Positions 1 to 64,000 of a stretch of DNA of 64,000 nucleotides are shown here, one piece after another. The stretch is taken from the NCBI GenBank assembly GCA_963826535.1, contig CAWGXL010000011.1, positions 809-64,808 on the forward strand, read 5' to 3'. The notes below the pieces were generated by a model that worked only from the letters and a program-made list of their open reading frames with translations, had not been told where the DNA came from and made no database searches. Positions within the stretch are counted from its first letter, which is position 1. Each line of letters starts with the position of its first letter. Source of the DNA: an uncultured bacterium. GTDB taxonomy: Bacteria > Patescibacteriota > Microgenomatia > Levybacterales > UBA12049. A program made the position numbers and the translations under genes.

Positions 1-1673
1 TAATCGCGTATTTACATGCGCTGAGTAATTTTGAAGATACTTCTTCATTATATCGAGTCATAACTTTGCCGATTTTTAATATAGAAGCCCGCGATGTTGC
101 AGCACTTTTGAATTTTGCCAAAAGAAAAAATTTATCTCTTTTTGAAGCAATGGAGCAGGTTTCCGACTCCGGCCTAACTGACGAGGGACGTGGAAAAGTA
201 ACGCGAATTACAGAAATGATGAAACGGCATTTGGCAAAAATCCCCCGCGAGACAGCAGGGCAGATTCTTTATTATTTTTTCGAAGACTGCGGTCTATTGG
301 GGCATTATCTTGATCCGGGAAGCAAGCGCACTGAAAGAGAAGCACAAAACATTGCCAAATTTTTTGATAAACTTCAGTCATATGCCGCAACACATACAGA
401 CGCTTCGGTATTTGCAGTGGTGGATTGGATAGACCTGTCAATGGAGCTGGGAGAAAGCCCGCTTTCTGCGGAAATAGATTGGACACGCAATAATGCCGTC
501 AATATTTTAACTATTCACTCAAGTAAAGGGCTTGAATTTCCTTTTGTTTTTGTTGTTAATTTGGTGACACAGCGATTTCCCAGTCGCGACAGAAAAGAAC
601 AAATTCCGGTTCCAACAGATATAATTCGCGAAATTCTTCCAACAGGCGACGAAAACCTTCAAGAAGAAAGGCGTCTCTTCTATGTTGCGATTACCCGGGC
701 AAAAGACAAACTAATTTTGACTGCTTCCCGTTATTATGGTGAGGCTAGACGAGAGAGAAAAATTTCTCCTTTTGTAATTGAAACATTGGGAGAAGAAAAG
801 GTTGCCGGCATTTTACAAAAGCAGACTATCGCACCTGCAGGCCAACAGCTCACTCTTCTTGATTTTTTCAATGCAAATATGCCCGCAACTAAAGAGGAAA
901 AAAAGGACAATAATGAGCCGGCAAAGTTAAATATATCCTATATCTCCTACTCACAATTGCAAACTTTTTTAATGTGCCCAATGCACTATAAACTACGTTA
1001 TATTCTCAATATGCCATCTGCACCATCACCGGCGCTAAGTTATGGGATAAGCGTACACAGTACGCTTCGTGATTTTTTCCAGGCGATTTTACAAAAACAA
1101 GAAGTTAAACCAGAGTTGATGAAGGAAATTTTGAAAAATAATTGGATCAGTTTGGGTTATGCTGGTAAAACTCACGAGGAAAAATCATATAAGCAAGCGG
1201 AAGCAATGCTTGTTGGATTTGCCAAAACAAGTCTTGTTGAAAAACCGGATACGCTTGCTGTTGAATTGCCGTTTAATTTCTGGTTGAATAAAATAAAAAT
1301 TGGCGGGAGAATTGACCGGATCGACAGAATGTCTGATGGTAGAATTGAAATAATTGATTATAAGACTGGTCCGAATGTCCCAAGTGAGAAAAAGGTCAAA
1401 GAAGATTTTCAATTATCTTTTTATGCCATAGCTGCTACTGAGGTCCGGGATAATATTCTTAATAAAACTCCTGAGCAAATAGTTTTGACGCTAAATTATT
1501 TGGAGGCTAACAAAAAGCTCTCCACGACCCGGACAAAAGAAGAATTGGAACTGGCAAAAGAAAAAATTCTTTCACTGGTTGATGAGATATCGAGGAGTGA
1601 TTTTCGTTGCAGCGGGGGGATGTTTTGTAAAAATTGTGAATACAAAATGGTGTGCAAGACTTTTGGGAATTAA
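1..1673 (+). CDS. C-terminal part of a UvrD-family helicase fused to a RecB-family (AddB/Cas4-like) PD-(D/E)XK nuclease domain with a Cys4 Fe-S motif. Partial: the reading frame is open from window position 3.
   Basis: Frame 3 is open from the window edge and the track ORF uses a TTG at position 66. Helicase motif VI-like IHSSKGLEFPFVFV. Nuclease motifs GRIDRIDR and IIDYKTG. C-terminal C-x6-C-x2-C-x5-C cluster (CSGGMFCKNCEYKMVC). Confidence 0.75.
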   Translation, partial: IAYLHALSNFEDTSSLYRVITLPIFNIEARDVAALLNFAKRKNLSLFEAMEQVSDSGLTDEGRGKVTRITEMMKRHLAKIPRETAGQILYYFFEDCGLLGHYLDPGSKRTEREAQNIAKFFDKLQSYAATHTDASVFAVVDWIDLSMELGESPLSAEIDWTRNNAVNILTIHSSKGLEFPFVFVVNLVTQRFPSRDRKEQIPVPTDIIREILPTGDENLQEERRLFYVAITRAKDKLILTASRYYGEARRERKISPFVIETLGEEKVAGILQKQTIAPAGQQLTLLDFFNANMPATKEEKKDNNEPAKLNISYISYSQLQTFLMCPMHYKLRYILNMPSAPSPALSYGISVHSTLRDFFQAILQKQEVKPELMKEILKNNWISLGYAGKTHEEKSYKQAEAMLVGFAKTSLVEKPDTLAVELPFNFWLNKIKIGGRIDRIDRMSDGRIEIIDYKTGPNVPSEKKVKEDFQLSFYAIAATEVRDNILNKTPEQIVLTLNYLEANKKLSTTRTKEELELAKEKILSLVDEISRSDFRCSGGMFCKNCEYKMVCKTFGN

Positions 1674-2134
1674 ACATGGCTCTTTGGGCGTACAAATACC
1701 ACTTGCTCTCTTGGCTGCCTTTCGCGTCTATGTCGTTCACGAGGTGCTCCTGCTTTTATAATCGCAATTTCTTCTTCGGTTGTAAATATACGTTTCCCGC
1801 GAAGTACTTCATATAATGGATATTGCCATTGAATTTCAGTAGGCAATTCTTTCCAAATATCTGATTTAACTCTTTCAATTATTTGCCTTACTCTTACATC
1901 CGTCACGCCTTCGTCTTGTTTTAATGAGTTAATGGGCTCACCATTAAGAGCAAAACGTTCAAATAACCGCATACCCCGCTTCCAACCTTGCGCAGCCGCC
2001 TTATTCGTACTTTTTTTCCTCTCAAGCACTTCTATTATCCCCCTGTCAATGGCTAATTGAGCAAATTCCTTATCAAGCGGCCGTGCTGTGTTTATAGGTT
2101 CGTCTGGAATTGACCTTGATCTTCGTTCACTCAT
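1670..2134 (-). CDS. Hypothetical protein with a sigma-70 region-4-like helix-turn-helix segment.
   Basis: 154 aa ORF. The segment GVTDVRVRQIIERV resembles the sigma region 4.2 HTH. No other recognisable domain. Confidence 0.35.
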   Translation of the reverse strand: MSERRSRSIPDEPINTARPLDKEFAQLAIDRGIIEVLERKKSTNKAAAQGWKRGMRLFERFALNGEPINSLKQDEGVTDVRVRQIIERVKSDIWKELPTEIQWQYPLYEVLRGKRIFTTEEEIAIIKAGAPRERHRRERQPREQVVFVRPKSHV

Positions 2135-2274
2135 ATTGTGTGTGAGTATAGCACATACTACGGGGTAAATATAAGAAATGCATCCAATAAAGGAGATAAT
2201 TTTGTAAGGATTTTAGGACTTATTAAAGTTGTATGACTGCTATTAATTTGCTTTCAAGCTAAATTTTGGCTACA

Positions 2275-2650
2275 ATTGCGGTGATCCTAGGAAGAAGTAC
2301 CGCTAGTATGTTCAGTTACATGAACGTACAGGAAAGTCCAGACAGGAGTCGTGTCAGAATTGGAGTGTAAGCTCTGACGTGTACCCCGATTTTATCGGGA
2401 GAAGCGCTGGTCCTTCTCTTTTTTATCCGCATGTGGAAGAGAAGGCAGGTCTTGAATTAACAAGACTTGCGAGCAACAGAGACGAGCGGGTGTGAAACGG
2501 GCAATCCCTTCTGCTGCAACTTCCGAGCGATGCGTTACTACTTTACACGAAAGGAGCATCTAGGTTTGAAGGCAGTCGCCTTAGGCGACCTGAATGAGTA
2601 ATCATTCTAGAGACAAATTGCGGTTAATCCCCCGCTCAGCGGGGGGGAAA
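2275..2650 (+). ncRNA. Candidate structured non-coding RNA, possibly a reduced RNase P RNA (rnpB-like).
   Basis: A ~550 nt stretch with no credible ORF. Contains ACAGGAAAGTCCAGAC (the universal P4 GGAAAGUCC motif) at ~2330. Contains GCAACAGAGACGAGCGGGTGTGAAACGGG (resembling the J11/12 ACAGARA motif plus GGGUGAAA) at ~2474. Several local hairpins, ending with the GC hairpin at 2631-2649. I could not trace a P4 3-prime strand, so the assignment is tentative. Confidence 0.3.
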
Positions 2651-2683
2651 CAGAATCTGGCTTATTACCTTCCTAGGATCAAT

Positions 2684-2956
2684 TTACCTTACCGCTTTTT
2701 TTAATGTTTTACCTGGTGTAAATCCAGGCGCTTTGCGAGCAGCAAGTGTAATTTTTTCACCTGTTTTGGGATTCCGTCCTACACGCTGTTGTCTACTTCT
2801 AATACTGAAAGTGCCGAATCCGGTTAAGACAACTTTTTCACCGCGTTTTAAAGAATCGCGAATGGTATTTAAGGTTGTTTGAACTGCATCACGCGCAGCT
2901 TTATTCGTGAGACTTGCCTTCTTTGCTACTATTTCAATGAGGTCTTTTTTGGTCAT
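2684..2956 (-). CDS. hup: DNA-binding protein HU (HU/IHF family).
   Basis: 90 aa. Typical HU sequence (MTKKDLIEIVAKK...GFGTFSIRSRQQRVGRNPKTGEKI). AGGAGGTG Shine-Dalgarno upstream. Confidence 0.9.
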   Translation of the reverse strand: MTKKDLIEIVAKKASLTNKAARDAVQTTLNTIRDSLKRGEKVVLTGFGTFSIRSRQQRVGRNPKTGEKITLAARKAPGFTPGKTLKKAVR

Positions 2957-3013
2957 ACATCACCTCCTTCCCACCAATAAATTTATAATAAGTTTATAAA
3001 GTAAGTTGGATTA

Positions 3014-3042
3014 ACAATACAATTAAAACTAATAGATGTCAA
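3014..3042 (-). promoter_or_regulatory. Sigma-70-like promoter for hup.
   Basis: Reverse strand reads TTGACA, a 17 nt spacer, then TATTGT, about 50 nt upstream of the hup ATG. Confidence 0.4.
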
Positions 3043-3085
3043 GAGGTTTTTTTAACGGGGTGGTTGTATTCATAAAAGCTGGGGA

Positions 3086-3113
3086 TTGACAGTAACAATA
3101 AAAGGTCTATAAT
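3086..3113 (+). promoter_or_regulatory. Strong sigma-70-like promoter, probably rrn P1, about 210 nt upstream of the 16S gene.
   Basis: TTGACA (3086-3091), a 16 nt spacer, then TATAAT (3108-3113). Confidence 0.5.
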
Positions 3114-3158
3114 CAAAACACTGATATGTAAAGTAGCGCCAAAGCTTGTATATTCATA

Positions 3159-3183
3159 CCTCGCTTTAGGCGGGGTTTTTTTA
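3159..3183 (+). terminator. Intrinsic-terminator-like hairpin with a T-run, lying between the P1 promoter and the 16S gene.
   Basis: CCTCGC-TTTA-GGCGGGG stem followed by eight T residues. Confidence 0.4.
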
Positions 3184-3321
3184 TCTTTATATGTCTTGCA
3201 CTTTGACAATCAAGATGTGGTAGGAATTTTTTTCGGATTATTCCTAAACCCCCGCTCAGCGGGGGCTAAAAAAGAAATCCGAAATCCGGGTTAATGATCC
3301 GTAGTAGACGGGTCATTAATT

Positions 3322-4927
<1,606 letters not shown>

Positions 4928-14762: not shown

Positions 14763-15677
14763 ATGACCTTTCTTGAAAAATACAAGCTCCTGAAAAAATC
14801 CGTCCCAGTTTCCGCAGTGACTATTGGTCCATATACAGTTGATTGTGAATATGTGGATTATCTTTTTAAAAGCAAAAATTGCTATTATAGTATTGAGGGA
14901 TTCTTCTTAGAAAACTGCATTTATATAGACTTTGCAACATTAAGTAATAAACTCGCAGATTGTACTCATTTAGTAGAATCAGAAAAGTGTTATGAATGCG
15001 TTGATTGCGGCAAGTGTCATAGTTGCACCTACCTTTTTGATTGTTATAACTGTACGGATTGTCATTTTTCCGCACTTTTAAATTCCTGTTCCGATTGCTT
15101 CGGCTGCGTTGGCTTAATTCATAAAAAGTATTGTATTTTTAATCAACAATATAGCAAAGACGAATACTTTAAAAAAGTTGAAGAATTAAAAAAAGAGAAT
15201 CCTGAATCAATTTTTAGGCAAATGATTGAATTAAAAAAACGGATGCCGCATCCGGCCAGTCAACAGTTCGATAGCGACAATTGTCCTTATGGAAATTATA
15301 TCTATAATTCTAAAAACTGCTATTGGTCTTTTAATACTTTATACAGTCAAAATTCCGGCTATACTTATTATTGCACTCTTGCAAAGAACTGCTGGGACAT
15401 GTTTCGCTCAGGCGGAAGCAAAGCTGAAAACGCTGTGTCGGAGAGATGTTATGAGATGGTTTATTCAAGGCCAAGTAACTACGGTTGCGCATTTCTTACT
15501 ACAAGCCAAAATTGTACTAATAGTTACTATAGCACGGATCTTAGAAACAGCTCCGATTGCTTCGGCTGTGTGGGATTAACTAATAAGAAATACTGCATTT
15601 TGAATAATCAGCTAACCAAAGGAGAATATGAAAAAGCCGTAAAAGAAATCAGAAAAGATCTTGGATGGAATTTTTAG
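14763..15677 (+). CDS. Cys-rich tandem-repeat protein of unknown family (paralog A), with an internal two-half duplication.
   Basis: 304 aa. Periodic C-x2-C ladder (CYECVDCGKCHSCTYLFDCYNCTDCHF...SCSDCFGCVGLIHKKYCIFNQQYSKDEY). The second half ends with the same DCFGCVGLTNKKYCILNNQLTKGEYEKAV motif. About 60% identical to the ORF at 43549..44457. Confidence 0.6.
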   Translation: MTFLEKYKLLKKSVPVSAVTIGPYTVDCEYVDYLFKSKNCYYSIEGFFLENCIYIDFATLSNKLADCTHLVESEKCYECVDCGKCHSCTYLFDCYNCTDCHFSALLNSCSDCFGCVGLIHKKYCIFNQQYSKDEYFKKVEELKKENPESIFRQMIELKKRMPHPASQQFDSDNCPYGNYIYNSKNCYWSFNTLYSQNSGYTYYCTLAKNCWDMFRSGGSKAENAVSERCYEMVYSRPSNYGCAFLTTSQNCTNSYYSTDLRNSSDCFGCVGLTNKKYCILNNQLTKGEYEKAVKEIRKDLGWNF

Positions 15678-29761: not shown

Positions 29762-31099
29762 ATGTGGGAACAATTTGGTTTAAGGAAAAATCCATATGAT
29801 ATTCTTCCGCTTCTTGAAGGCGGAGATATTCCTATTGCCGAAGCGTTTGTCGGGCGGGAGAAGGAAAGAAAATATATTAATGATTTATTCTCCCAGGAAG
29901 ACAGGGTATGTCTGACTATCTGCGGCGCTGTTGGGGTGGGTAAAACAAGCATCGCTAATTTTGTAAAGTATATCTGGAAGTATGGCAAGAAAGAAAAACC
30001 TTTGTTCTCTTTCAGACGCGAGATTGAAGCGAATGAATCAATTCTTAATAAAAAAAGTTTCCTTCTGGAAATTATCGGTTCTATCCTACGTGAGATCGAG
30101 CTTATAGATCCGCGTTTACTTACAAAGCATAATCTTCTATTAAAACTAAACCAAATGGTTGATATAACACAAACTCTTGGTTTGTCGGGAAGCGTTTCGG
30201 CGGGAATGTTTGGAGTTAATTTTCAATCAAATATAACGGAAAAGCAGATGGTTCAACCGTTTCAGTTGACAGCAACAACGCTGGAAAAACAGTTTATGGA
30301 ACTTCTTAAATTTATAATGACGCATAAAATTGCGGGGAAACAATACCTGGGGTTAATTATCCATGTGAATAATTTCGAGATTGCATTGAATTCCAATAAA
30401 AAAAAGGTTTTAGAGTTTTTCGCGGAGATTCGTGATTTTCTACAGACTCCAAATCTCTATTTTATTTTCCTGGGGCCGAATAATTTTTATAAGGAAATGA
30501 TCTCAAGTAATATGAGGGTCAGGAGTGTTTTTTCTCAGACACCTATCATTCTAGCGCCATTGACTAAGGAAGAGTTAGTGAAGGCTTTGAACAAGCGGCT
30601 GGAGCTATTAAAGTCACCGACTGCGAAAAAGATTATTAAGCCTTTTGAGGATGAGGTTATTTTTGAACTTTACAATATGTTCGGAGGTGATGTGCGGATG
30701 ATTATGTCCTCATTGAAAGACATAGTGACCCATTTATCGGATCGCTTGGAGCGCTTGCCGAAAACGTTAACAATCGATGAAGCAATATTCCTTTTGGGGA
30801 ATGAGCGATTGTCTCATATCGAAGACAGGCTTACGGAGGAGCAAATGAAGGTGCTTGCATATATTGCTTCTTCGGACGTTGCGGTCACACAAGATGAAAT
30901 TGCTAAAGTATTAAATAAAGCGCCAACAAATATTTCAAATTATTATTTTAAGCCGCTTTTGGAGCACGATATTGTTGAGGTAAAAAGGGAGACGGGGACG
31001 TTTAAATATTGGGGATTAACGAAAAAATATTTGCCGCTGAAAAAAGTGGTTCAATTACAGAAAGGGATAACAAAGCAAGCTGCTTTGATTTCAAAATAA
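29762..31099 (+). CDS. AAA+ P-loop ATPase (archaeal-ATPase PF01637-like) with a C-terminal winged-helix domain.
   Basis: FVGREKERKYINDLF...LTICGAVGVGKTSIANF (Walker A). C-terminal LAYIASSDVAVTQDEIAKVL HTH. Confidence 0.55.
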   Translation: MWEQFGLRKNPYDILPLLEGGDIPIAEAFVGREKERKYINDLFSQEDRVCLTICGAVGVGKTSIANFVKYIWKYGKKEKPLFSFRREIEANESILNKKSFLLEIIGSILREIELIDPRLLTKHNLLLKLNQMVDITQTLGLSGSVSAGMFGVNFQSNITEKQMVQPFQLTATTLEKQFMELLKFIMTHKIAGKQYLGLIIHVNNFEIALNSNKKKVLEFFAEIRDFLQTPNLYFIFLGPNNFYKEMISSNMRVRSVFSQTPIILAPLTKEELVKALNKRLELLKSPTAKKIIKPFEDEVIFELYNMFGGDVRMIMSSLKDIVTHLSDRLERLPKTLTIDEAIFLLGNERLSHIEDRLTEEQMKVLAYIASSDVAVTQDEIAKVLNKAPTNISNYYFKPLLEHDIVEVKRETGTFKYWGLTKKYLPLKKVVQLQKGITKQAALISK

Positions 31100-42973: not shown

Positions 42974-43252
42974 GTGCTATATACTGCGACTATGGAAACA
43001 AAGATTTTAAATTATCGGATTATTCTTAAGAAAGAAAAGGAAACAAGGAAGACCATATTTCTTGCAGAATGTCCCACATTGGGAATATATGACTGGGGAG
43101 ATACTCTTGATCTGGCTCTCTCACATATCAAAGAAGCAATAGAATGTCATGTTGCATCCTTACTAAAAGATGGTGAGGAAATACCGGTTGATTATCCTGA
43201 TAAAGAATTTGTGACAGAAACAAAAATTATTGTACCAACTCTTCTTCCCTAA
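42974..43252 (+). CDS. hicB: HicB-family (UPF0150) antitoxin.
   Basis: 92 aa with RNase-H-like fold signature (YRIILKKEKE...FLAECPTLG...GDTLDLALSHIKEAIE). Confidence 0.65.
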   Translation: MLYTATMETKILNYRIILKKEKETRKTIFLAECPTLGIYDWGDTLDLALSHIKEAIECHVASLLKDGEEIPVDYPDKEFVTETKIIVPTLLP

Positions 43253-43263
43253 GCTCTTAATTC

Positions 43264-43488
43264 ATGAGCGTTCTTGCAAATATCAAAGTAAAAGATATGG
43301 AGCGTATATTGCTAAGCAAAGGGTTTCAGCCTCATGCATCAAAAGGGAGTCATAAAACATTCAAGCACCTAGATGGTAGAAGAACGACACTTGCCTATCA
43401 TCCGGGAAATATCCCCAAACCAATTGTTGCAAAGATACTTAAACAATCCGGTATAACAAGAGATGAACTTCAAAAATATCGTAGATAA
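43264..43488 (+). CDS. hicA: HicA-family mRNA interferase toxin.
   Basis: 74 aa. ...GFQPHASKGSHKTFKH...PKPIVAKILKQSGI HicA/YcfA motif. Confidence 0.7.
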   Translation: MSVLANIKVKDMERILLSKGFQPHASKGSHKTFKHLDGRRTTLAYHPGNIPKPIVAKILKQSGITRDELQKYRR

Positions 43489-43548: not shown

Positions 43549-44457
43549 ATGACATTTCTTGAAAAATATGAACTGCTGAAAAAATCTATACCTGTTCCGG
43601 CTGTGACGATTCCAGGTACAGTTGAAAGTGAATATGTGGAATATTGCTATAGATGCAAAAATTGTTTTTACTGCATTGATGGATTCACGCCACTTATAGA
43701 TAGTATATATTCAAACTTTGCACGGGGTAATAAGCTTGTGGATTGTACTAATGTGACAGAATCGGAAAAGTGTTATCTATGCTTTGATTGTACAAAGTGC
43801 TATAGCTCTACTTATCTAATGGATTGTAATAACTCTACCGATTGTCATTTCTCAGCATTTTTAAATTCTTGTAATGATTGTTTTGGTTGTGTGGGTTTAA
43901 CTCAAAAAAAATATTGTATTTTTAATAAACAATATACAAAAGAAGAATACCTAAAAAAAGTAGAAGAATTAAAAAAAGGAAAGCCTGAAATGATCCTCGA
44001 GCAAATGATTGAATTAAAAAAACAGATACCGCATCCCGCAAGTCAACAATTTAATAATGAGAATTGTCCGTTTGGTGATTATATATATAATTCCAAGAAC
44101 TCCTACTGGTGCTTTATTGCAACATATAGTGAGAATTCAGGTTATTGTTATCAAGTTAGTCGAGTAAGGAACAGTTGGGATGCATTTTACTCCGGCGGTA
44201 ATGCAGAAAAAAAAACTACTACCGAGCGATGTTATGAAATTGTAAATTTAACGGGCTGTTACGAATGTGCTTTTGTATATAATTGTGAAGACTGTACAAA
44301 TTGTTACTACGGGGCAGATCTTTTAAACTGTTCCGATTGTTTTGGCTGCGTTGGAATATTAAAGAAGAAATATTGTATATTAAATAATCAATTTACAAAA
44401 GAGCAATATGAAAAAGCCGTTAAGAGCATCAAAAAAGAGCTTGGGTGGAAAATTTAG
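43549..44457 (+). CDS. Cys-rich tandem-repeat protein of unknown family (paralog B).
   Basis: 302 aa. N-terminus MTFLEKYELLKKSIPVPAVTI is near-identical to paralog A. Same CxxC ladder and C-terminal DCFGCVG..KKYCILNNQFTKEQYEKAVK motif. Confidence 0.6.
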   Translation: MTFLEKYELLKKSIPVPAVTIPGTVESEYVEYCYRCKNCFYCIDGFTPLIDSIYSNFARGNKLVDCTNVTESEKCYLCFDCTKCYSSTYLMDCNNSTDCHFSAFLNSCNDCFGCVGLTQKKYCIFNKQYTKEEYLKKVEELKKGKPEMILEQMIELKKQIPHPASQQFNNENCPFGDYIYNSKNSYWCFIATYSENSGYCYQVSRVRNSWDAFYSGGNAEKKTTTERCYEIVNLTGCYECAFVYNCEDCTNCYYGADLLNCSDCFGCVGILKKKYCILNNQFTKEQYEKAVKSIKKELGWKI

Positions 44458-51816: not shown

Positions 51817-52080
51817 ATGAGCAAAAAGCTTTCTCAGAAAATTTTGGAATATACTGCTATTTTTGAACCCGCAGAGGAAGGCGGTTATGTAGTAAGCGTC
51901 CCGGCTCTTCCGGGTTGCATAACTCAAGGCGAAACTTTTGAAGAAGCTGTGGCTATGATTAAAGACGCTATGCAGGGATATTTAGCAGTTTTAAAAGAAG
52001 AAGGGGAAGAAATCCCGCAAGAAAAATCAGACGTTGTTATCACCAAAGTGTCTGTCGCTAATCCTGCAGCGAATTTATAA
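51817..52080 (+). CDS. hicB: HicB-family (UPF0150) antitoxin, second copy.
   Basis: YTAIFEPAEEGGYVVSVPALPGCITQGETFEEAVAMIKDAMQ is a textbook HicB/UPF0150 sequence. Confidence 0.75.
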   Translation: MSKKLSQKILEYTAIFEPAEEGGYVVSVPALPGCITQGETFEEAVAMIKDAMQGYLAVLKEEGEEIPQEKSDVVITKVSVANPAANL

Positions 52081-52295
52081 TGGCATCCTTTAAAGCACGA
52101 GAAATCGTTAAAATTCTTCAAAAATTAGGATATATTAAAAAGCGTCAAACGGGTAGCCACATTATCATGTATAACCAACAACAAAAACAAACAATTCCGG
52201 TTCCAATGCATGCCAAAGAACTTAAAAAGGGCTTGTTAAAGGCAATAATAAAAAAAGCGGACTCAAGCGAAGAGGAGTTTATTAGACTGAAATAA
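52080..52295 (+). CDS. hicA: HicA-family toxin, second copy.
   Basis: 71 aa. REIVKILQKLGYIKKRQTGSHIIM. Start overlaps the hicB stop. Confidence 0.7.
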   Translation: MASFKAREIVKILQKLGYIKKRQTGSHIIMYNQQQKQTIPVPMHAKELKKGLLKAIIKKADSSEEEFIRLK

Positions 52296-52298
52296 ATC

Positions 52299-53279
52299 AT
52301 GATGAAAGCAACTGCAATTGCACCATCAAATATTGCATTTATAAAATATTGGGGTGTTAAAGATGAAGAGCTTCGCCTTCCGAAAAATGGCAGTATTTCC
52401 ATGAATCTTAGTAATCTCCTGACAACAACCACCGTTGAATTTAGTTCGAATTATAAAACAGACAGTATTCAGATCAACGATACACATGAAGCAAACGAAG
52501 AAACTCGTGTAATGCAATACCTTGATCGCATTAGAAATCTCGCAAAGATACAGCACAAAGCAAAAGTTGTAACAAAGAATAATTTTCCAACAGCAACCGG
52601 TCTTTCATCTTCGGCATCAGGATTTGCAGCGCTTTCCGTTGCAGGAGCAAAAGCCGCAGCACTAAATCTTTCCGAAAAAGAACAATCAATTCTCGCACGT
52701 CTTGGATCAGGATCTGCGTGTAGATCAATTCCTGATGGGTTTACTGAATGGTTGGATGGGGATACGAGTGATACATCATACGCAGTTTCATTACATCCTC
52801 CGGAATATTGGAAAATCGTAGATGTTGTAGCAGTTGTCAGTATAAATAAAAAAGAAGTAAGCTCAACAGAAGGACACAGACTAGCAACAACAAGTCCATT
52901 TTTTGACAAAAGACTAGAGCTGAACAAAGAAAAAATACGGCGAATGAAACAATATATAAAAGATAGAAACTTTACTGCATTTGGAGAACTAACAGAGGCA
53001 GAAGCACTTGAGCTTCATGCAATTTATATCACGTCTCAACCCTCATTAATTTATTTACTTCCCGGTACCCTGCGCATCATGCATGAAGTAAAGCGCTGGA
53101 GAAATGAAGGACTTGAAGTATACTTTACGCTAAATACCGGACAGGATATTCATATTATTTGCCAGAATAAAGACAGCGGGAAAGTCCAACAGCTACTTTC
53201 TCAGATTCCAGAAGTAAAACAAATTATCCCAAACTATCCAGCAATTGGTGTTCGATTAACTGACAAGCACCTTTTTTAA
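52299..53279 (+). CDS. mvd: Diphosphomevalonate decarboxylase (MVD family).
   Basis: APSNIAFIKYWG...PTATGLSSSASGFAAL MVD motifs. 326 aa. Confidence 0.85.
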   Translation: MMKATAIAPSNIAFIKYWGVKDEELRLPKNGSISMNLSNLLTTTTVEFSSNYKTDSIQINDTHEANEETRVMQYLDRIRNLAKIQHKAKVVTKNNFPTATGLSSSASGFAALSVAGAKAAALNLSEKEQSILARLGSGSACRSIPDGFTEWLDGDTSDTSYAVSLHPPEYWKIVDVVAVVSINKKEVSSTEGHRLATTSPFFDKRLELNKEKIRRMKQYIKDRNFTAFGELTEAEALELHAIYITSQPSLIYLLPGTLRIMHEVKRWRNEGLEVYFTLNTGQDIHIICQNKDSGKVQQLLSQIPEVKQIIPNYPAIGVRLTDKHLF

Positions 53280-54415
53280 TGCAAATCAAAGCCGCTACAA
53301 ATTTACCCGCAATTATAAAAAAACTTGAAGAATTAGTTTTGGCATCAACGGGCGCAGAACCATTTGAAGAAATTTTGAAACTTATTTATGCAAAATTGTA
53401 TGCTGAGAAAATTGCAAAAAAGACACTTCCGGTTCAAATTCTTTTTGAAGGGGCCAAAAAAGAATGGCCCGGAATGTTTGACAAAAAAGACACTATTGAA
53501 ATCTCACCTAGTAATCTTACATTGTGTACAGAGCTTCTATCGAAAGTTACATTGTATAAATCTGATTTAGCAATTATTGACACAGCATTTGAATATTTAT
53601 TACCCAAAGCTGCCAAAGGAAGCCGGGGGCAATATTTTACTCCGCGTCATATTGTTGTTGAAGTTGTTAAAATTTTAAATCCTAAAAAGAATGACTATAT
53701 TCTGGATCCGGCTTGCGGATCGGGAGGATTTTTACTTCATGCTGCTAAATATGTTAATAATGCAAAAAGGGTTTATGGTATTGATTTTGATAAGCGCATG
53801 GTAAAAATTGCTCAAGCAATGATGCTTATCGCAGGATTTGGACAAGCGAATATTTATAAAGCGGATTCACTCTCCTCTACTGTTGTATTGGGTAAACAAT
53901 TATTTGAGGTTATCTGTACGAATCCCCCATTTGGCGGAGAAATTAAAGATGGAGAAGTTTTGCAGAGGTATGAACTTGCAAAAGACAATCGCGGGAAATT
54001 GCGTAGCATAGTTCAACGGCATGTTCTCTTTATAGAAAAGATTATAAATTTACTCAATCCCGGGGGACGGGCGGCAATTGTTGTGCCCCAAGGGATATTA
54101 AATAATACTAACTTTGCTTACATACGAGAATGGATATTTAAGAAAGCGAGAATATTAGGAGTGATTGGTTTAGATGCATTCACATTTAAGCCGCATACAA
54201 ATGTAAAAACAAGTTTATTATTTCTGCAGAAATGGTCCGGTAAAGAACTTTCAGATTACAAAATATTTATGGCAGTATCTAAGAAAGGCGGCAAGAATCT
54301 CTCAGGAGGATATGTTTATAAAACCCAAAACGGAAGGCAGATAATAGACCATGATTTACCGGAAATTGCAGAGAAGTTTATAAAATTCATAAAAAATGAG
54401 AAGCTTAATTTCTAA
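53279..54415 (+). CDS. hsdM: Type I restriction-modification N6-adenine DNA methyltransferase subunit (HsdM-like, short form).
   Basis: GQYFTPRHIV, LDPACGSGGFLL (motif I) and NPPFGG (motif IV). Start overlaps the mvd stop (TAATG). Confidence 0.8.
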   Translation: MQIKAATNLPAIIKKLEELVLASTGAEPFEEILKLIYAKLYAEKIAKKTLPVQILFEGAKKEWPGMFDKKDTIEISPSNLTLCTELLSKVTLYKSDLAIIDTAFEYLLPKAAKGSRGQYFTPRHIVVEVVKILNPKKNDYILDPACGSGGFLLHAAKYVNNAKRVYGIDFDKRMVKIAQAMMLIAGFGQANIYKADSLSSTVVLGKQLFEVICTNPPFGGEIKDGEVLQRYELAKDNRGKLRSIVQRHVLFIEKIINLLNPGGRAAIVVPQGILNNTNFAYIREWIFKKARILGVIGLDAFTFKPHTNVKTSLLFLQKWSGKELSDYKIFMAVSKKGGKNLSGGYVYKTQNGRQIIDHDLPEIAEKFIKFIKNEKLNF

Positions 54416-54417
54416 GT

Positions 54418-55758
54418 ATGCTTGATTCATTTGTTAACCATTCCGATATCATAGCCGCAAACCGACTGGATGCGGAGTATTTCCAACCAAAGTTTCTAGA
54501 TTTACGGGAAAAATTAAAGAGCGGGAAGTATAGAAAACTGCACGAGTTATGCGAATTTATCCGGACAGGACCTGCGGGCTCAGTTCTGCCAGCGTCTAAA
54601 TATACATCATCCGGTATAAAAGTTTATAGACCGTCAAATTTAAACGGCTGGACTTGCGATAACTCTAATATTGTTTATGTATCTGAAGAGTATTGTAGTA
54701 AACAAAATTTAAAACTGTATAGCAACGGTGATATTTTAGTGACAAGAATTGGAGATATAAAATTTGCAATTATTCAGGAAACTAAACTCTTTGCAATTAG
54801 CCCAAATTTATTTGTAATTAGAACAAAGAAAGATTTACTTGATCCGTATTTTCTATTAGTATTTCTCAATACATGGTTTGGAGCTGATCAAATTCTACGC
54901 GGACAAAAAATTGTTTCTTTAGCGTCTGTGGATATTGGACAGGTTGCTAATATGCTAGTGCCGTTAATACCTGTTGATGCGCAAATAAAAATAGGCAAAT
55001 TAGTAAAAAATGGGTTAAAAAAATTGCGGCAAGCAAAGGAGATACATTCTCAAACAGAAAGTGCTCTTGTGCAAATTATTGGTCACCAAAAAAGTAGCAA
55101 GGATCAATCGTCAAACATAATAAACTTTTCCGAATTACTAAAAGTACGCCGGGCAGATGCTGAATATTTCTTGGCGCAAAAATTCATAGGTCAAGAGTCA
55201 ATAAAATGGATGCAAATTGGTGAAATTTCACGTGTTATGCGTGGAATTGAGCCCGGAAGAAAAGCTTACCAAAAAAACGGAAAATTATTTATGAGGGTCA
55301 GCAATATAGATAAATACGGATTATTGGAAAAAAGCCAAAAATATATTAGTGAAGTTTTATATAAAAAACTTTACAAAAAATATCAACCACAAATTAGTGA
55401 GATACTGCTCGTAAAAGATGGAAAACCTGGTGTTGCTTTTGTTGTTAAAAAATCTATAAAGGGAATAATCTCAGATGGAATTGTGCGGCTACAGCTTAAT
55501 ACTCTATTTGCCCCAGAATATGTGAGTCTTTGTATAAATTCTCCTATTTGTCAGCAACAGATCCTAGCTGATATAGATGGATCACTTGTGCCGCATTGGA
55601 AGGTTGAGCAAATAAAGAATTTAAAAATTCCAATTGTTTCTGCAAATATCCAAGCAGGGCTTGTTAGAGTCATGAAAAAATCCGGTATACTTTTTCAAAA
55701 AGCGGAGGAAAATTTATTACTTGCAAAATACCAAATAATTCTCTTTATGCCAAAATAA
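54418..55758 (+). CDS. hsdS: Type I restriction-modification specificity subunit HsdS with two target-recognition domains.
   Basis: Duplicated NRLDAEYF / RRADAEYF N-terminal-of-TRD motifs. Conserved PLIPVDAQIKIGKLV and IPIVSANIQAGLV spacer regions. Confidence 0.8.
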   Translation: MLDSFVNHSDIIAANRLDAEYFQPKFLDLREKLKSGKYRKLHELCEFIRTGPAGSVLPASKYTSSGIKVYRPSNLNGWTCDNSNIVYVSEEYCSKQNLKLYSNGDILVTRIGDIKFAIIQETKLFAISPNLFVIRTKKDLLDPYFLLVFLNTWFGADQILRGQKIVSLASVDIGQVANMLVPLIPVDAQIKIGKLVKNGLKKLRQAKEIHSQTESALVQIIGHQKSSKDQSSNIINFSELLKVRRADAEYFLAQKFIGQESIKWMQIGEISRVMRGIEPGRKAYQKNGKLFMRVSNIDKYGLLEKSQKYISEVLYKKLYKKYQPQISEILLVKDGKPGVAFVVKKSIKGIISDGIVRLQLNTLFAPEYVSLCINSPICQQQILADIDGSLVPHWKVEQIKNLKIPIVSANIQAGLVRVMKKSGILFQKAEENLLLAKYQIILFMPK

Positions 55759-62312: not shown

Positions 62313-63404
62313 TTATTTCTCTTCGGAGCCATCTTTTTCTTTTTCACTGCCAACGACCAGCGGTGCACGGCCGTCTTTATTTTGGGCCATGATTTTCTGG
62401 ACTATTTCTTTTTCAATATCCATATTTTCTTTCAACTTTTCCATTGTTGCCGCTTTGCCTTGTCCGAGCAATTGGTCATTATAACGGTAAAATGCTCCTG
62501 ACTTTTGAATTATGCCCATCTCGACTCCTACATCAACGATTCCGCCTTCGCGGGATATGCCACTTTCTGTCACATCAAACTCAGCAATACGGAACGGTGC
62601 GGCAACTTTGTTCTTGACAACTTTTACCCTGTGGCGGCTGCCAATGGCGCGATCGCCGTCTTTGAGTGTCTCGATTTTGCGAATATCCATGCGCATAGAT
62701 GAGTAGAATTTCAACGCTAAGCCGCCGGTCGTAGTCTCAGGATTGCCAAACATCACTCCGATTTTCTGGCGGAGTTGGTTGGTAAAGATAGCAACAGTTT
62801 TGGATTTGGAGATGACGCCAGTTAATTTCCTGAGCGCTTGAGACATGAGCCGTGCTTGTAAGCCAATGATCGATTCGCCCATTTCTCCTTCGATTTCAGC
62901 TCGCGGTACTAACGCTGCGACTGAATCAATGACCAGTACATCAATACCTCCTGAGCGGATAAGGCTTTCGGCGATTTCGAGCGCTTGTTCTCCGGTGTCG
63001 GGCTGGGAAATCAGTAGTTCATCAAGTTTTACTCCGAGTTTCTGCGCCCAAAGCGGATCAAGTGCATGCTCCGCGTCGATAAAGGCTGCAATGCCGCCAT
63101 GTTTTTGGGCTTGGGCGATAATCGATAGACAGACAGTAGTTTTCCCTGAAGCTTCCGGACCGAATATTTCAATGATTCTTCCCCGAGGGACACCTCCAAC
63201 ACCTAATGCTAAATCTAAAGGCAGACAACCTGTTGAGATGACTGAAATATCAAATTTTTGGGCTGCCTCGCCAAAGCGCATAATGGCTCCGCGTCCGTAT
63301 TGCTTTTCAATTTGATCCATTGCCAAACGGATCGATTCCATTTTCTGAGCACTATCAGAAGGATGAGACGCTGTCTTTTGACTATTTGAAGAAGTTCGTG
63401 CCAT
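62313..63404 (-). CDS. recA: Recombinase RecA.
   Basis: Walker [10 protein letters not shown], ...[12 protein letters not shown]..., L2 loop. 363 aa. Confidence 0.97.
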
Positions 63405-63635: not shown

Positions 63636-63998
63636 GTGGATCAAATTTCTATTTCTTGCTCATTTTGTAATAAAAGGTTCATACGCGCTTCCGGGCATGT
63701 ACATGAAAGTCTAAAGTTGGGTTATAAATTGTATTGCTCTGACACATGCCATGGGAACAGTAAAAAGAGGAGAATAAAATTAGCTTGCGAAAACCCTATA
63801 TGCGCTAAGAAATTTGAAAGGTTAATCTCTGGAATCTCTTCTCATAACTTTTGTTCAAGTTCATGTGCGGCAATAGTCAATAATAAAAAATTTCCCAAGC
63901 ATCTTGGTAAGAGAAAGATTTGCGTTACTTGTCACAAAGAATTTATCAGTAGAGAAAAATTCTGTTCAGTTTCTTGTAAGATTCAAGGTCAAATAATT
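63636..63998 (+). CDS. Partial CDS (runs off the window) encoding three tandem TRASH/zf-FCS-like zinc-ribbon repeats (C-x2-4-C...F/Y-C-S-x2-C).
   Basis: Open frame from a GTG at 63636. Reads ...CSFCNKRF...YCSDTC...CENPICAKKF...FCSSSC...CVTCHKEF...FCSVSC.... Preceded by an AGGAG-like site. Confidence 0.4.
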   Translation, partial: MDQISISCSFCNKRFIRASGHVHESLKLGYKLYCSDTCHGNSKKRRIKLACENPICAKKFERLISGISSHNFCSSSCAAIVNNKKFPKHLGKRKICVTCHKEFISREKFCSVSCKIQGQII

Positions 63999-64000
63999 AC

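Follow-up and report, generated by a model that had tools for sequence, protein, structure and literature searches.

Paired Cys-rich solenoid-like proteins form a Patescibacteria-wide family linked by gene context to zinc fingers and a VirD4-like ATPase

Introduction

The DNA analysed here, a 64,000-nucleotide stretch from an uncultured bacterium of the Patescibacteriota (GenBank assembly GCA_963826535.1, contig CAWGXL010000011.1, positions 809 to 64,808 of the forward strand; the whole stretch is referred to as the window), encodes two related proteins, paralogues A and B, in which cysteine recurs at every third residue over long runs. The locus raises the question of what such a cysteine ladder does, and what the proteins that carry it are for. 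An initial annotation, made from the sequence alone, had proposed a metal-binding or disulfide-stapled beta-solenoid and had taken the presence of two copies to imply a function, possibly related to the cell surface, to defence or to metal storage.

The question concerns the least annotated bacterial phylum, the Patescibacteria or candidate phyla radiation (CPR). VirD4-like ATPases are encoded by about two genes per CPR genome (5,713 in 2,918 genomes), have no assigned role and are mostly unlinked to virB4, only 148 of the 5,713 type IV coupling protein (T4CP) homologues being located near it; it has been suggested that they were exapted. The type IV secretion systems (T4SS) of these bacteria have neither relaxases nor known substrates (PMC12102498).

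Results

Both open reading frames (ORFs) were present where the initial annotation had placed them, their products were 64% identical, and a tblastn search over the window identified A and B as the only family copies. Cysteine made up 8.6% of A (26 residues) and 9.3% of B (28 residues), compared with approximately 0.5-1% in the remaining ORFs of the window. The cysteine periodicity of both proteins is far beyond chance. All 16 cysteines between residues 28 and 124 of A were on one mod-3 register; A contained nine CxxC pairs (shuffle mean of 2.1; equalled in 1 of 20,000 shuffles) and 12 cysteine pairs separated by 12 residues (i/i+12; equalled in 0 of 20,000), and for B the numbers were 13 and 11, each equalled in 0 of 20,000 shuffles. 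The strict ladder that had been described was therefore upheld, and the accompanying count of about 30 cysteines was too high. As had also been noted, the two halves of A were homologous (38% identity over 144 aa, E = 4e-29).

Comparison of the two genes indicated that selection had acted on the proteins. The ratio of nonsynonymous to synonymous divergence (dN/dS) between A and B was 0.13 overall and 0.35 in variable patch 1, and differences were most frequent at third codon positions, followed by first and then second positions; because of this ratio and this order, A and B are regarded as constrained coding genes. The termini had been described as near-identical in nucleotides. This description was not borne out, since DNA identity was 72% overall, 80% in codons 1-30 and 73% in the final 30 codons, and the N-terminal helix had a dS of approximately 1.8 and a dN/dS of 0.04. 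What is conserved at the termini is therefore the protein sequence rather than the DNA, and gene conversion at these ends was ruled out by the same dS value. Similarity between A and B began at the ATG and stopped at the stop codon. Because the likeness does not extend past the ORF, the two are members of a gene family rather than copies of a repeat element. A mobile element or repeat with shared ends was ruled out by the unrelated flanking DNA.

Structure prediction and covariation suggested that A and B each probably comprise two very narrow beta-solenoids with 12-residue coils. The AlphaFold2 (AF2) model of A, based on a 59-sequence alignment, had a predicted local distance difference test (pLDDT) score of 80 and a predicted template modelling (pTM) score of 0.78, and consisted of an N-terminal helix, very short strands (aa ~24-127), a helical hairpin (132-158), a second run of strands (170-281) and a C-terminal helix. 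The model of B (109-sequence alignment; pLDDT 77, pTM 0.77) had the same topology. Covariation was calculated as mutual information with average product correction (APC) in an alignment of 405 homologous modules. A separation of 12 residues accounted for 24 of the 150 top covarying pairs, which were spread over both halves of the protein (170-182, 199-211, 243-255 and 264-276 in solenoid 2), and no other separation accounted for more than eight. The coils are assigned 12 residues because this separation dominates the covariation, which is independent of AF2; since the cysteine-rich columns recur at every third residue, each coil would have four inward positions. The C-terminal helix covaried with residue 6 of the N-terminal helix. 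Taken with the models, these data provide good support for a module of about 150 aa, predicted to consist of a helix, a narrow beta-solenoid, the conserved cap CxDCFGCVGLxxKxYCIxNxQ and a second helix, and duplicated in tandem.

Structure comparison gave two figures for each relative: 9.7 and 8.1 for curli CsgA, 9.2 and 5.7 for phi29 gp12, 8.1 and 5.4 for the ryegrass ice-binding protein, and 6.8 and 6.0 for the Tenebrio antifreeze protein (TmAFP), of which 79 and 75 of the 82 residues were aligned. A Foldseek search of viral structures returned no match at E≤0.001.

Residue statistics for inward and outward positions were computed over the 405 modules. The cysteine-rich columns were all on one every-third register. 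Inward positions were occupied by C (39%), S (17%), L (11%), V (6%), N (5%), G (5%), I (4%) and A (4%), and outward positions were rich in Y, N, D and F. Any single ladder cysteine was retained in only 18-82% of the modules, which contained from 11 to 40 cysteines each; in solenoid 1 of A the visible ladder comprised aa 76-115. Cysteines stacked at a separation of 12 tended to occur together (mean phi of +0.16; 30 of 35 pairs positive), those across the core at a separation of 6 tended to exclude each other (mean phi of -0.13; 29 of 34 pairs negative), a value that is a statistic of sequence and not of chemistry, and at separations of 3 and 9 the association was near zero. Four-cysteine metal sites and TmAFP-type i/i+6 disulfides found no support in the ladder, as both predict the opposite sign at a separation of 6. 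A viral relative of 311 aa had a Ser/Val ladder in place of the cysteines and the same family cap.

The ladder is interpreted as core packing because cysteine is exchanged with Ser, Leu, Val and Ile, because the i/i+6 association is negative and because the Ser/Val homologue exists. A core of Cys, Ser and aliphatic residues is well supported by these statistics; in it, cysteine would serve as a small, fairly hydrophobic residue that can be swapped with Ser, Leu or Val and that stacks on itself from coil to coil, so that the ladder would be the means by which a very tight core is filled. The same evidence argues against the metal-binding or disulfide-stapled ladder of the initial annotation.

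Only the cap that ends each module was near-invariant. The columns concerned were C109, C112, F113, G114, C115, V116, L118, K121, C124, N127 and Q129 in cap 1, and G268, C269, L272, K275, Y277, C278, N281 and Q283 in cap 2. Sites 109/112/115/124 of cap 1 read CCCC in 235 of the 405 modules, CCCH in 48 and CCCY in 34, and residue 124 was coupled to residue 129 (C-Q versus H/Y-P); sites 263/266/269/278 of cap 2 read CCCC in 186 of 405 and SLCC in 65. The three or four nearly invariant cysteines, sometimes with a histidine, may bind one structural zinc per module.

Viral homologues represented the extremes of the ladder. One 251-aa protein (L086 4962..5717; IMGVR_UViG_3300044798_000139) was almost pure (C-S-D / C-S-R / C-F-G)n, with cysteine at every third residue over approximately 190 residues, followed by the family cap (CSDCFGC...YLICNVQVTKEEY). 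Of the proteins considered, this one is the strongest candidate for a 12-residue solenoid filled entirely with cysteine, and fully lined forms of this kind could conceivably enclose a continuous metal-thiolate or disulfide column. Single-module Ser/Val relatives with the cap CSYCFFCSGLKNKKFCLFNQ were observed in L088 (5518..6453; IMGVR_UViG_3300045988_179000) and on approximately ten similar phage-like contigs of ~100 kb.

The count of two paralogues in the initial annotation was correct for the window and not for the genome, since the 894,453-bp source contig carried at least 28 distinct paralogues, A and B included (28 of the top 120 matches). Their density, about one per 32 kb, agrees with the 29-kb spacing of A and B. 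Full-length copies numbered 24 of the 28, with pairwise identities of 53-80% (median 61%); because their nearest neighbours were sometimes in related genomes, the expansion appears to be old and maintained. All copies began with MTFLEKYELLKKSIPVPAV and finished with KKYCILNNQLTKEQYEKAVKEIKKELGW, and the N-terminal helix was near-identical across the 24 full-length proteins. Variability was centred on the initial coils of both solenoids (aa ~20-72 and ~200-260): patch 1 was the most divergent part among the paralogues of the genome, and in patch 2 the nonsynonymous difference between A and B (pN of 0.34) was the highest of any segment. The central hairpin had the highest A/B nucleotide identity (81-83%). 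No signal peptide or transmembrane (TM) segment was detected in any paralogue, and no hydrophobic 19-mer scored above 1.4, which argues against the surface location that had been suggested. These sequence comparisons give good support for a repertoire of 28 or more copies that the source genome has maintained.

Beyond this genome, a word-indexed search identified 878 close matches, and an exhaustive profile search identified 3,455 representatives (clusters at 50% identity) at E≤0.001, of which 1,139 were at E≤1e-30. At least 522 loci were in species-representative genomes, nearly all of them labelled as CPR lineages. There is good support, from sequence matches, for a CPR/Patescibacteria-wide family that is unannotated in curated libraries. 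The survey of the family and its neighbourhoods that had been suggested as a check thus placed it throughout the CPR, and it also identified zinc-finger and ATPase genes as neighbours.

The neighbourhood sample consisted of 85 loci, namely 80 fetched CPR loci and five Microgenomates look-ups (four distinct assemblies). The 80 loci contained 208 family genes, most of which encoded proteins of 540-600 aa and formed same-strand tandem arrays of two to five. In the long forms of ~560 aa, treble-clef zinc fingers (PF13451, PF23477) were located on both sides of the twin-solenoid module. TrmB-type regulators neighboured family genes in 18 of the 80 loci. A P-loop ATPase (TrwB_AAD_bind, T4SS-DNA_transf, DUF87) was adjacent in 11 of the 80 loci, an unbiased sample, as determined by clustering and tblastn, and in all five Microgenomates look-ups, a total of 16 of 85 loci. 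With about two such ATPases per genome, a random 9-kb interval would hold one in ~2% of cases, so the adjacency is several-fold enriched.

In Microgenomates the gene order was the ATPase (DUF8128 + DUF87 + TrwB_AAD_bind, ~750 aa), a double zinc finger of 92-94 aa and one to three short forms of ~300 aa. The same order of ATPase, zinc finger and short form was present in L002, a related metagenome-assembled genome (MAG) among the 80 loci. In this closest outside relative (1265..3556) the ATPase gene was split by an in-frame stop into 631 and 131 aa; this stop is either an artefact of sequencing or a sign that the ATPase is decaying in the lineage in which the short forms multiplied. The operon in L085 adjoined dnaA/dnaN/yidC/rnpA and was located among PrgI, TraC-like and VirB4/TraG-like genes. 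No hydrophobic membrane anchor was found in the ATPase; its nearest solved relatives were TrwB and DotL, matched around the P-loop only, and in PADLOC it matched the mad8 (5e-16) and HerA models. The 92-aa zinc-finger protein weakly resembled LIM-type double fingers, and the source contig also encoded a zinc-finger partner, P0387, which shared 87% identity with the copy in the relative. Since zinc finger and solenoid are fused in most lineages and split in Microgenomates, we infer from the fusion that they act together. Gene neighbourhood and fusion give good support for a link between the family and both the treble-clef zinc fingers and a soluble ATPase of the VirD4/HerA type. Neither this link nor the size of the expansion had been noticed in the initial annotation.

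In agreement with the initial annotation, which had not recognised the family, searches of Pfam, NCBIfam and PADLOC gave zero matches for A and B, a Pfam search of 59 homologues gave only noise, and sequence and profile searches of the PDB gave only insignificant matches (ZZ fingers, E = 0.15; maltose acetyltransferase, E = 0.06). The sole PHROG match was that of B to phrog_15341 (function not assigned; 3.6e-9). A literature search on the family, on cysteine ladders in solenoids and on the zinc-finger Pfam accessions found no prior description.

The earlier statement that the proteins are not ferredoxins, pentapeptide repeats or zinc ribbons also proved correct. Pentapeptide-repeat proteins (PF00805/PF13599) have an A(D/N)LXX repeat and 20-residue coils; no Pfam match at E≤1 was obtained for A, B or the 59 homologues, and their period was 3/12. 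The 4Fe-4S ferredoxin pattern (CxxCxxCxxxCP, Fer4) was absent, the cap reading C-x2-C-x2-C-x8-C without proline and with C, H or Y at the fourth site, and Fer4 was not matched. The paired CxxC knuckles of the zinc-ribbon and treble-clef domains (PF13451, PF23477) were not present in A or B. Among other repeat folds, the left-handed hexapeptide beta-helix (PF00132), with its hexapeptide repeat and triangular 18-residue coils, did not fit either; similarity to curlin (CsgA, PF07012) was confined to the fold, with no Pfam match and no signal peptide; and bactofilin gave no Pfam match. TmAFP (PDB 1EZG) was not matched at E≤10 by sequence or profile. The defence models of PADLOC-DB gave zero matches for A, B and one long form, and of the genes in these neighbourhoods the ATPase alone matched.

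Features of the window and of paralogue A. Positions are those of the window; AF2, AlphaFold2; aa, amino acids.
Feature	Position	Strand	Evidence
Paralogue A (= P0001)	14763..15677	+	ORF, 304 aa, 26 Cys; two ~150-aa modules; identical to database protein P0001
N-terminal helix, constant, aa 3-13 (MTFLEKYELLKKS...)	14769..14801	+	AF2; low paralogue entropy; dN/dS 0.04
Solenoid 1, aa ~24-127 (predicted)	14832..15143	+	12-residue coils; inward every third residue (28, 31 ... 124)
Variable patch 1, aa 20-72	14820..14978	+	Mean entropy 1.72 bits vs 0.59-0.97 in constant parts; dN/dS 0.35
Cap motif 1, aa 109-129, C-S-D-C-F-G-C-V-G-L-I-H-K-K-Y-C-I-F-N-Q-Q	15087..15149	+	Family hallmark
Central helical hairpin joining the modules, aa 132-158	15156..15236	+	AF2 helices H132-143, H147-158
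Solenoid 2, aa ~170-281 (predicted)	15270..15605	+	12-residue coils; AF2 pLDDT ~90; covariation
Variable patch 2, aa ~200-260	15360..15542	+	Entropy 1.9 bits in aa 216-240; A/B pN 0.34
Cap motif 2, aa 263-283, S-S-D-C-F-G-C-V-G-L-T-N-K-K-Y-C-I-L-N-N-Q	15549..15611	+	Conservation columns
C-terminal helix, constant, Lys-rich, aa 286-300 (...EYEKAVKEIRKDLGW)	15618..15662	+	AF2 helix H286-300; conserved in all paralogues
hicB-hicA toxin-antitoxin pair, directly upstream of B	42974..43488	+	HicB 42974..43252, HicB_lk_antitox 4e-6; HicA 43264..43488, HicA_toxin 7e-13
Paralogue B (= P0019)	43549..44457	+	ORF, 302 aa, 28 Cys; architecture as in A

The initial annotation had described an essentially leaderless start for A, with a TG-extended -10 sequence. 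This sequence (TGGTATAAA) was present 11-16 nt before the ATG; the promoter and leaderless claim did not rise above chance, since the promoter-like sites in both regions (five found) equalled the number expected from shuffles (5.1 and 5.7), and B had no equivalent site. A further promoter-like match (TTGTCC-16-TATAAT, 10/12) was located inside both paralogues at the same codons (15281..15308 and 44064..44091) and is most simply explained as a coding by-product of the conserved peptide NCPYGxYIYNS.

The hicBA module that had been noted beside B was confirmed. In a related MAG (L001 3481..3992), HicB-like and HicA-like ORFs, judged by reading the sequence, were located directly upstream of a family gene (4001..4909). 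The pairs from the window and from L001 had no BLASTP similarity at E≤1e-3 and their outer flanks differed; because the pairs are unlike, the adjacency of B and hicBA is not inherited synteny, and the position of HicBA beside family genes may be a recurrent association or a coincidence. A second HicB/HicA pair (51817..52295; Pfam 8e-13 and 9e-21) was located inside a mevalonate-pathway cluster comprising HMG-CoA reductase (45631), an HMG-CoA synthase-like gene (46792), a GHMP kinase (49273) and diphosphomevalonate decarboxylase (52299).

Other features of the window were recorded. An ORF that runs off the end of the window (63636..64000) was 9.9% cysteine, with C-x2-C-x(10-21)-[FY]-C-S-x2-C repeats and no Pfam match, and was unrelated to the family; the gene beside it (62313..63404) looked like recA by sequence. 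A complete 16S rRNA gene (3322..4927) had 1,606 nt compared to the 1,533 positions of the model, which suggests an insertion of ~70 nt. No 23S, 5S or tRNA genes were detected in the 64 kb, and since neither 23S nor 5S accompanied the 16S gene the rRNA genes appear to be unlinked. An N6 DNA methylase (N6_Mtase, 2e-40) was followed by a type I specificity subunit (Methylase_S) at 53279..55758, and a 445-aa ORF (29762..31099) weakly matched the N-domain of STAND NTPases (nSTAND1, 3.6e-5, below the Pfam cut-off).

Discussion

The explanation that we tentatively favour is that the family supplies interchangeable cytoplasmic recognition or adaptor subunits that work with the zinc finger and the VirD4-like ATPase. 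According to this proposal the proteins would be cytoplasmic and would have two constant partners: a LIM-like/treble-clef double zinc finger, fused in most CPR lineages and made as a separate 92-aa protein in Microgenomates, the source genome included, and a soluble P-loop ATPase of the VirD4/TrwB/HerA type that is encoded alongside. The constant terminal helices and the caps would dock these partners and the two variable patches would give each paralogue its own binding specificity, so that the family would form a repertoire of interchangeable subunits for an ATPase machine.

Several observations weigh against this proposal or the structural picture beneath it. No ATPase or zinc-finger gene was found near A or B in the window, where both genes are solitary, and no ATPase of the source contig was among the top 120 ATPase matches, although a related 494-kb contig has one there; the ATPase partnership may have weakened or disappeared in the very lineage where the family expanded. 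In the models, the most cysteine-dense coils had pLDDT values of only 57-75, and the exposure of the variable patches is presumed. At residue 124 the cap also accepts Tyr, and at 263/266 Ser-Leu, both uncommon in a zinc site. Everything beyond the fold is drawn from gene neighbourhood and domain fusion.

The favoured proposal can be extended. The family and the zinc finger might together be the clients or adaptors so far lacking for the orphan VirD4-like ATPase that is abundant in Patescibacteria. The 28 copies would then decide which host molecules or cells can be engaged, whether they act as effectors that are delivered or confer specificity on a motor for import or export. This extension is doubtful at present. 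A related and rather unlikely alternative is that the paralogues are themselves cargo: the ATPase would read the Lys-rich C-terminal helix and pass the proteins to the CPR T4SS, which would deliver them to the surface or interior of the host, the 28 variants would be an effector repertoire, and their free thiols could oxidise into staples outside the cell. Such a role would suit the constant termini and variable interior, the neighbouring T4CP-like ATPase, which among solved proteins is closest to TrwB and DotL, the position of the L085 operon among T4SS-like genes near dnaA, and the absence of relaxases and known substrates from the CPR systems. It is opposed by the lack of a membrane anchor in the ATPase, by the scarcity of CPR T4CP homologues near virB4 and by the finding that the T4CP is non-essential where other T4SS genes are essential (PMC12102498). 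Moreover, the module is mostly fused to four zinc-finger units, which would make it a poor substrate for unfolded translocation, and secretion of the family proteins is a prediction only.

A conflict or defence system, in which the solenoids would be sensors or decoys for proteins of phages or competitors and would signal via the HerA-type ATPase, is likewise unlikely. It would account for the mad8 and HerA matches of the ATPase and for the arrays of diverged paralogues with divergent TrmB-type regulators, and the single modules found on 19 viral contigs, like the one PHROG match, could be phage-encoded counter-measures. HicBA pairs adjoin family genes in two genomes, and these pairs are not detectably similar, but HicBA is frequent in the source genome anyway. 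The solenoid and zinc-finger proteins match no PADLOC model, the conserved operon contains no nuclease, Sir2, TIR or other effector domain, and the core-genome position of L085 beside dnaA, yidC and rnpA is unlike that of a typical defence island. The original idea that the chemistry of the cysteines is the function, whether by binding metal (storage, buffering or an Fe-S/Zn chain) or by disulfide stapling as in TmAFP, is very unlikely. The high cysteine content in a strict CxxC register, the 12-residue coil in common with the disulfide-cored TmAFP, the viral homologue with cysteine at every inward position and the exchange of Cys and His at the cap are in its favour; against these stand the dispensability of each ladder cysteine, the absence of positive coupling at separations of 3, 6 and 9, the Ser/Val-cored homologue, the predicted cytoplasmic location and the lack of a match to any ferredoxin, metallothionein or zinc-ribbon family. 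Polymerisation of the twin solenoids, end to end through caps and helices, into a bactofilin- or curli-like filament or scaffold in the cytoplasm, with the paralogues as structural isoforms, is highly improbable. Solenoids with exposed ends tend to stack and the terminal helices covary, but both ends are capped by conserved motifs and helices that normally block stacking, neither a bactofilin nor a curlin match was obtained, and a homopolymer would not readily account for 28 isoforms that vary in particular patches.

If recognition or adaptor subunits are the correct reading, the VirD4-like ATPase gains two conserved partners that had previously gone unnoticed. The family itself is a large domain family covered by no curated library, and it would extend the 12-residue Cys/Ser-cored beta-helix to bacteria and phages; to our knowledge, this fold has been described only from a beetle antifreeze protein. 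It also suggests that even a conspicuous CxxC ladder can serve for packing rather than as a series of metal sites. At least 28 diverged copies in a 0.9-Mb genome, approximately 3% of its coding capacity, imply strong selection for diversity, which makes a function in host interaction or conflict a concrete possibility.

When compared with known systems, the fold class is known and the coil geometry is that of TmAFP; the system context is undescribed. The TmAFP coil reportedly has 12 residues, TCTxSxxCxxAx, with C2, S5, C8 and A11 facing inward. The family resembles it in its 12-residue coil (here derived from covariation), in having every third residue inward and in its narrow Cys/Ser-rich core. 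The i/i+6 cysteines of TmAFP are obligatorily paired, whereas those of the family are anti-correlated, and the family core also takes Leu, Val and Ile. The family lacks the TxT ice-binding face (no TxT array is present in A or B) and a signal peptide, and each of its chains contains two solenoids together with flanking helices and a conserved cap. TmAFP is a secreted insect protein, whereas the family is bacterial or phage-encoded and predicted to be cytoplasmic. Curli CsgA (PDB 8C50, 8ENQ) has repeats of ~19-23 residues with Gln/Asn ladders and is secreted and amyloid-forming; the family differs from it in its 12-residue coil, in the capping of both ends and in the lack of a Pfam curlin match.

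The zinc-finger domains zf_Tbcl and zf_Tbcl_2 (PF13451, PF23477; TIGR04272, CxxC-x17-CxxC) are fused to the module in the long forms and also constitute the separate 92-aa partner; they are absent from A and B and themselves lack an assigned function. As in the type IV coupling protein systems (DotL with IcmS/IcmW/LvgA), an ATPase of the VirD4/DotL class is encoded with small candidate client-selecting partners, and the variable partners of the family would be analogous to adaptors or effectors. Unlike DotL-type proteins, the CPR ATPase has a DUF8128 N-domain, has no membrane anchor and is usually distant from virB4; the zinc-finger and solenoid partners have no similarity to known adaptors. 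The pentapeptide-repeat proteins (Qnr, MfpA and the cyanobacterial expansions) offer a further parallel, as they are cytoplasmic beta-solenoids with small inward residues that include cysteine, often have many paralogues per genome with mostly unassigned roles, and in some cases act via surface mimicry or binding.

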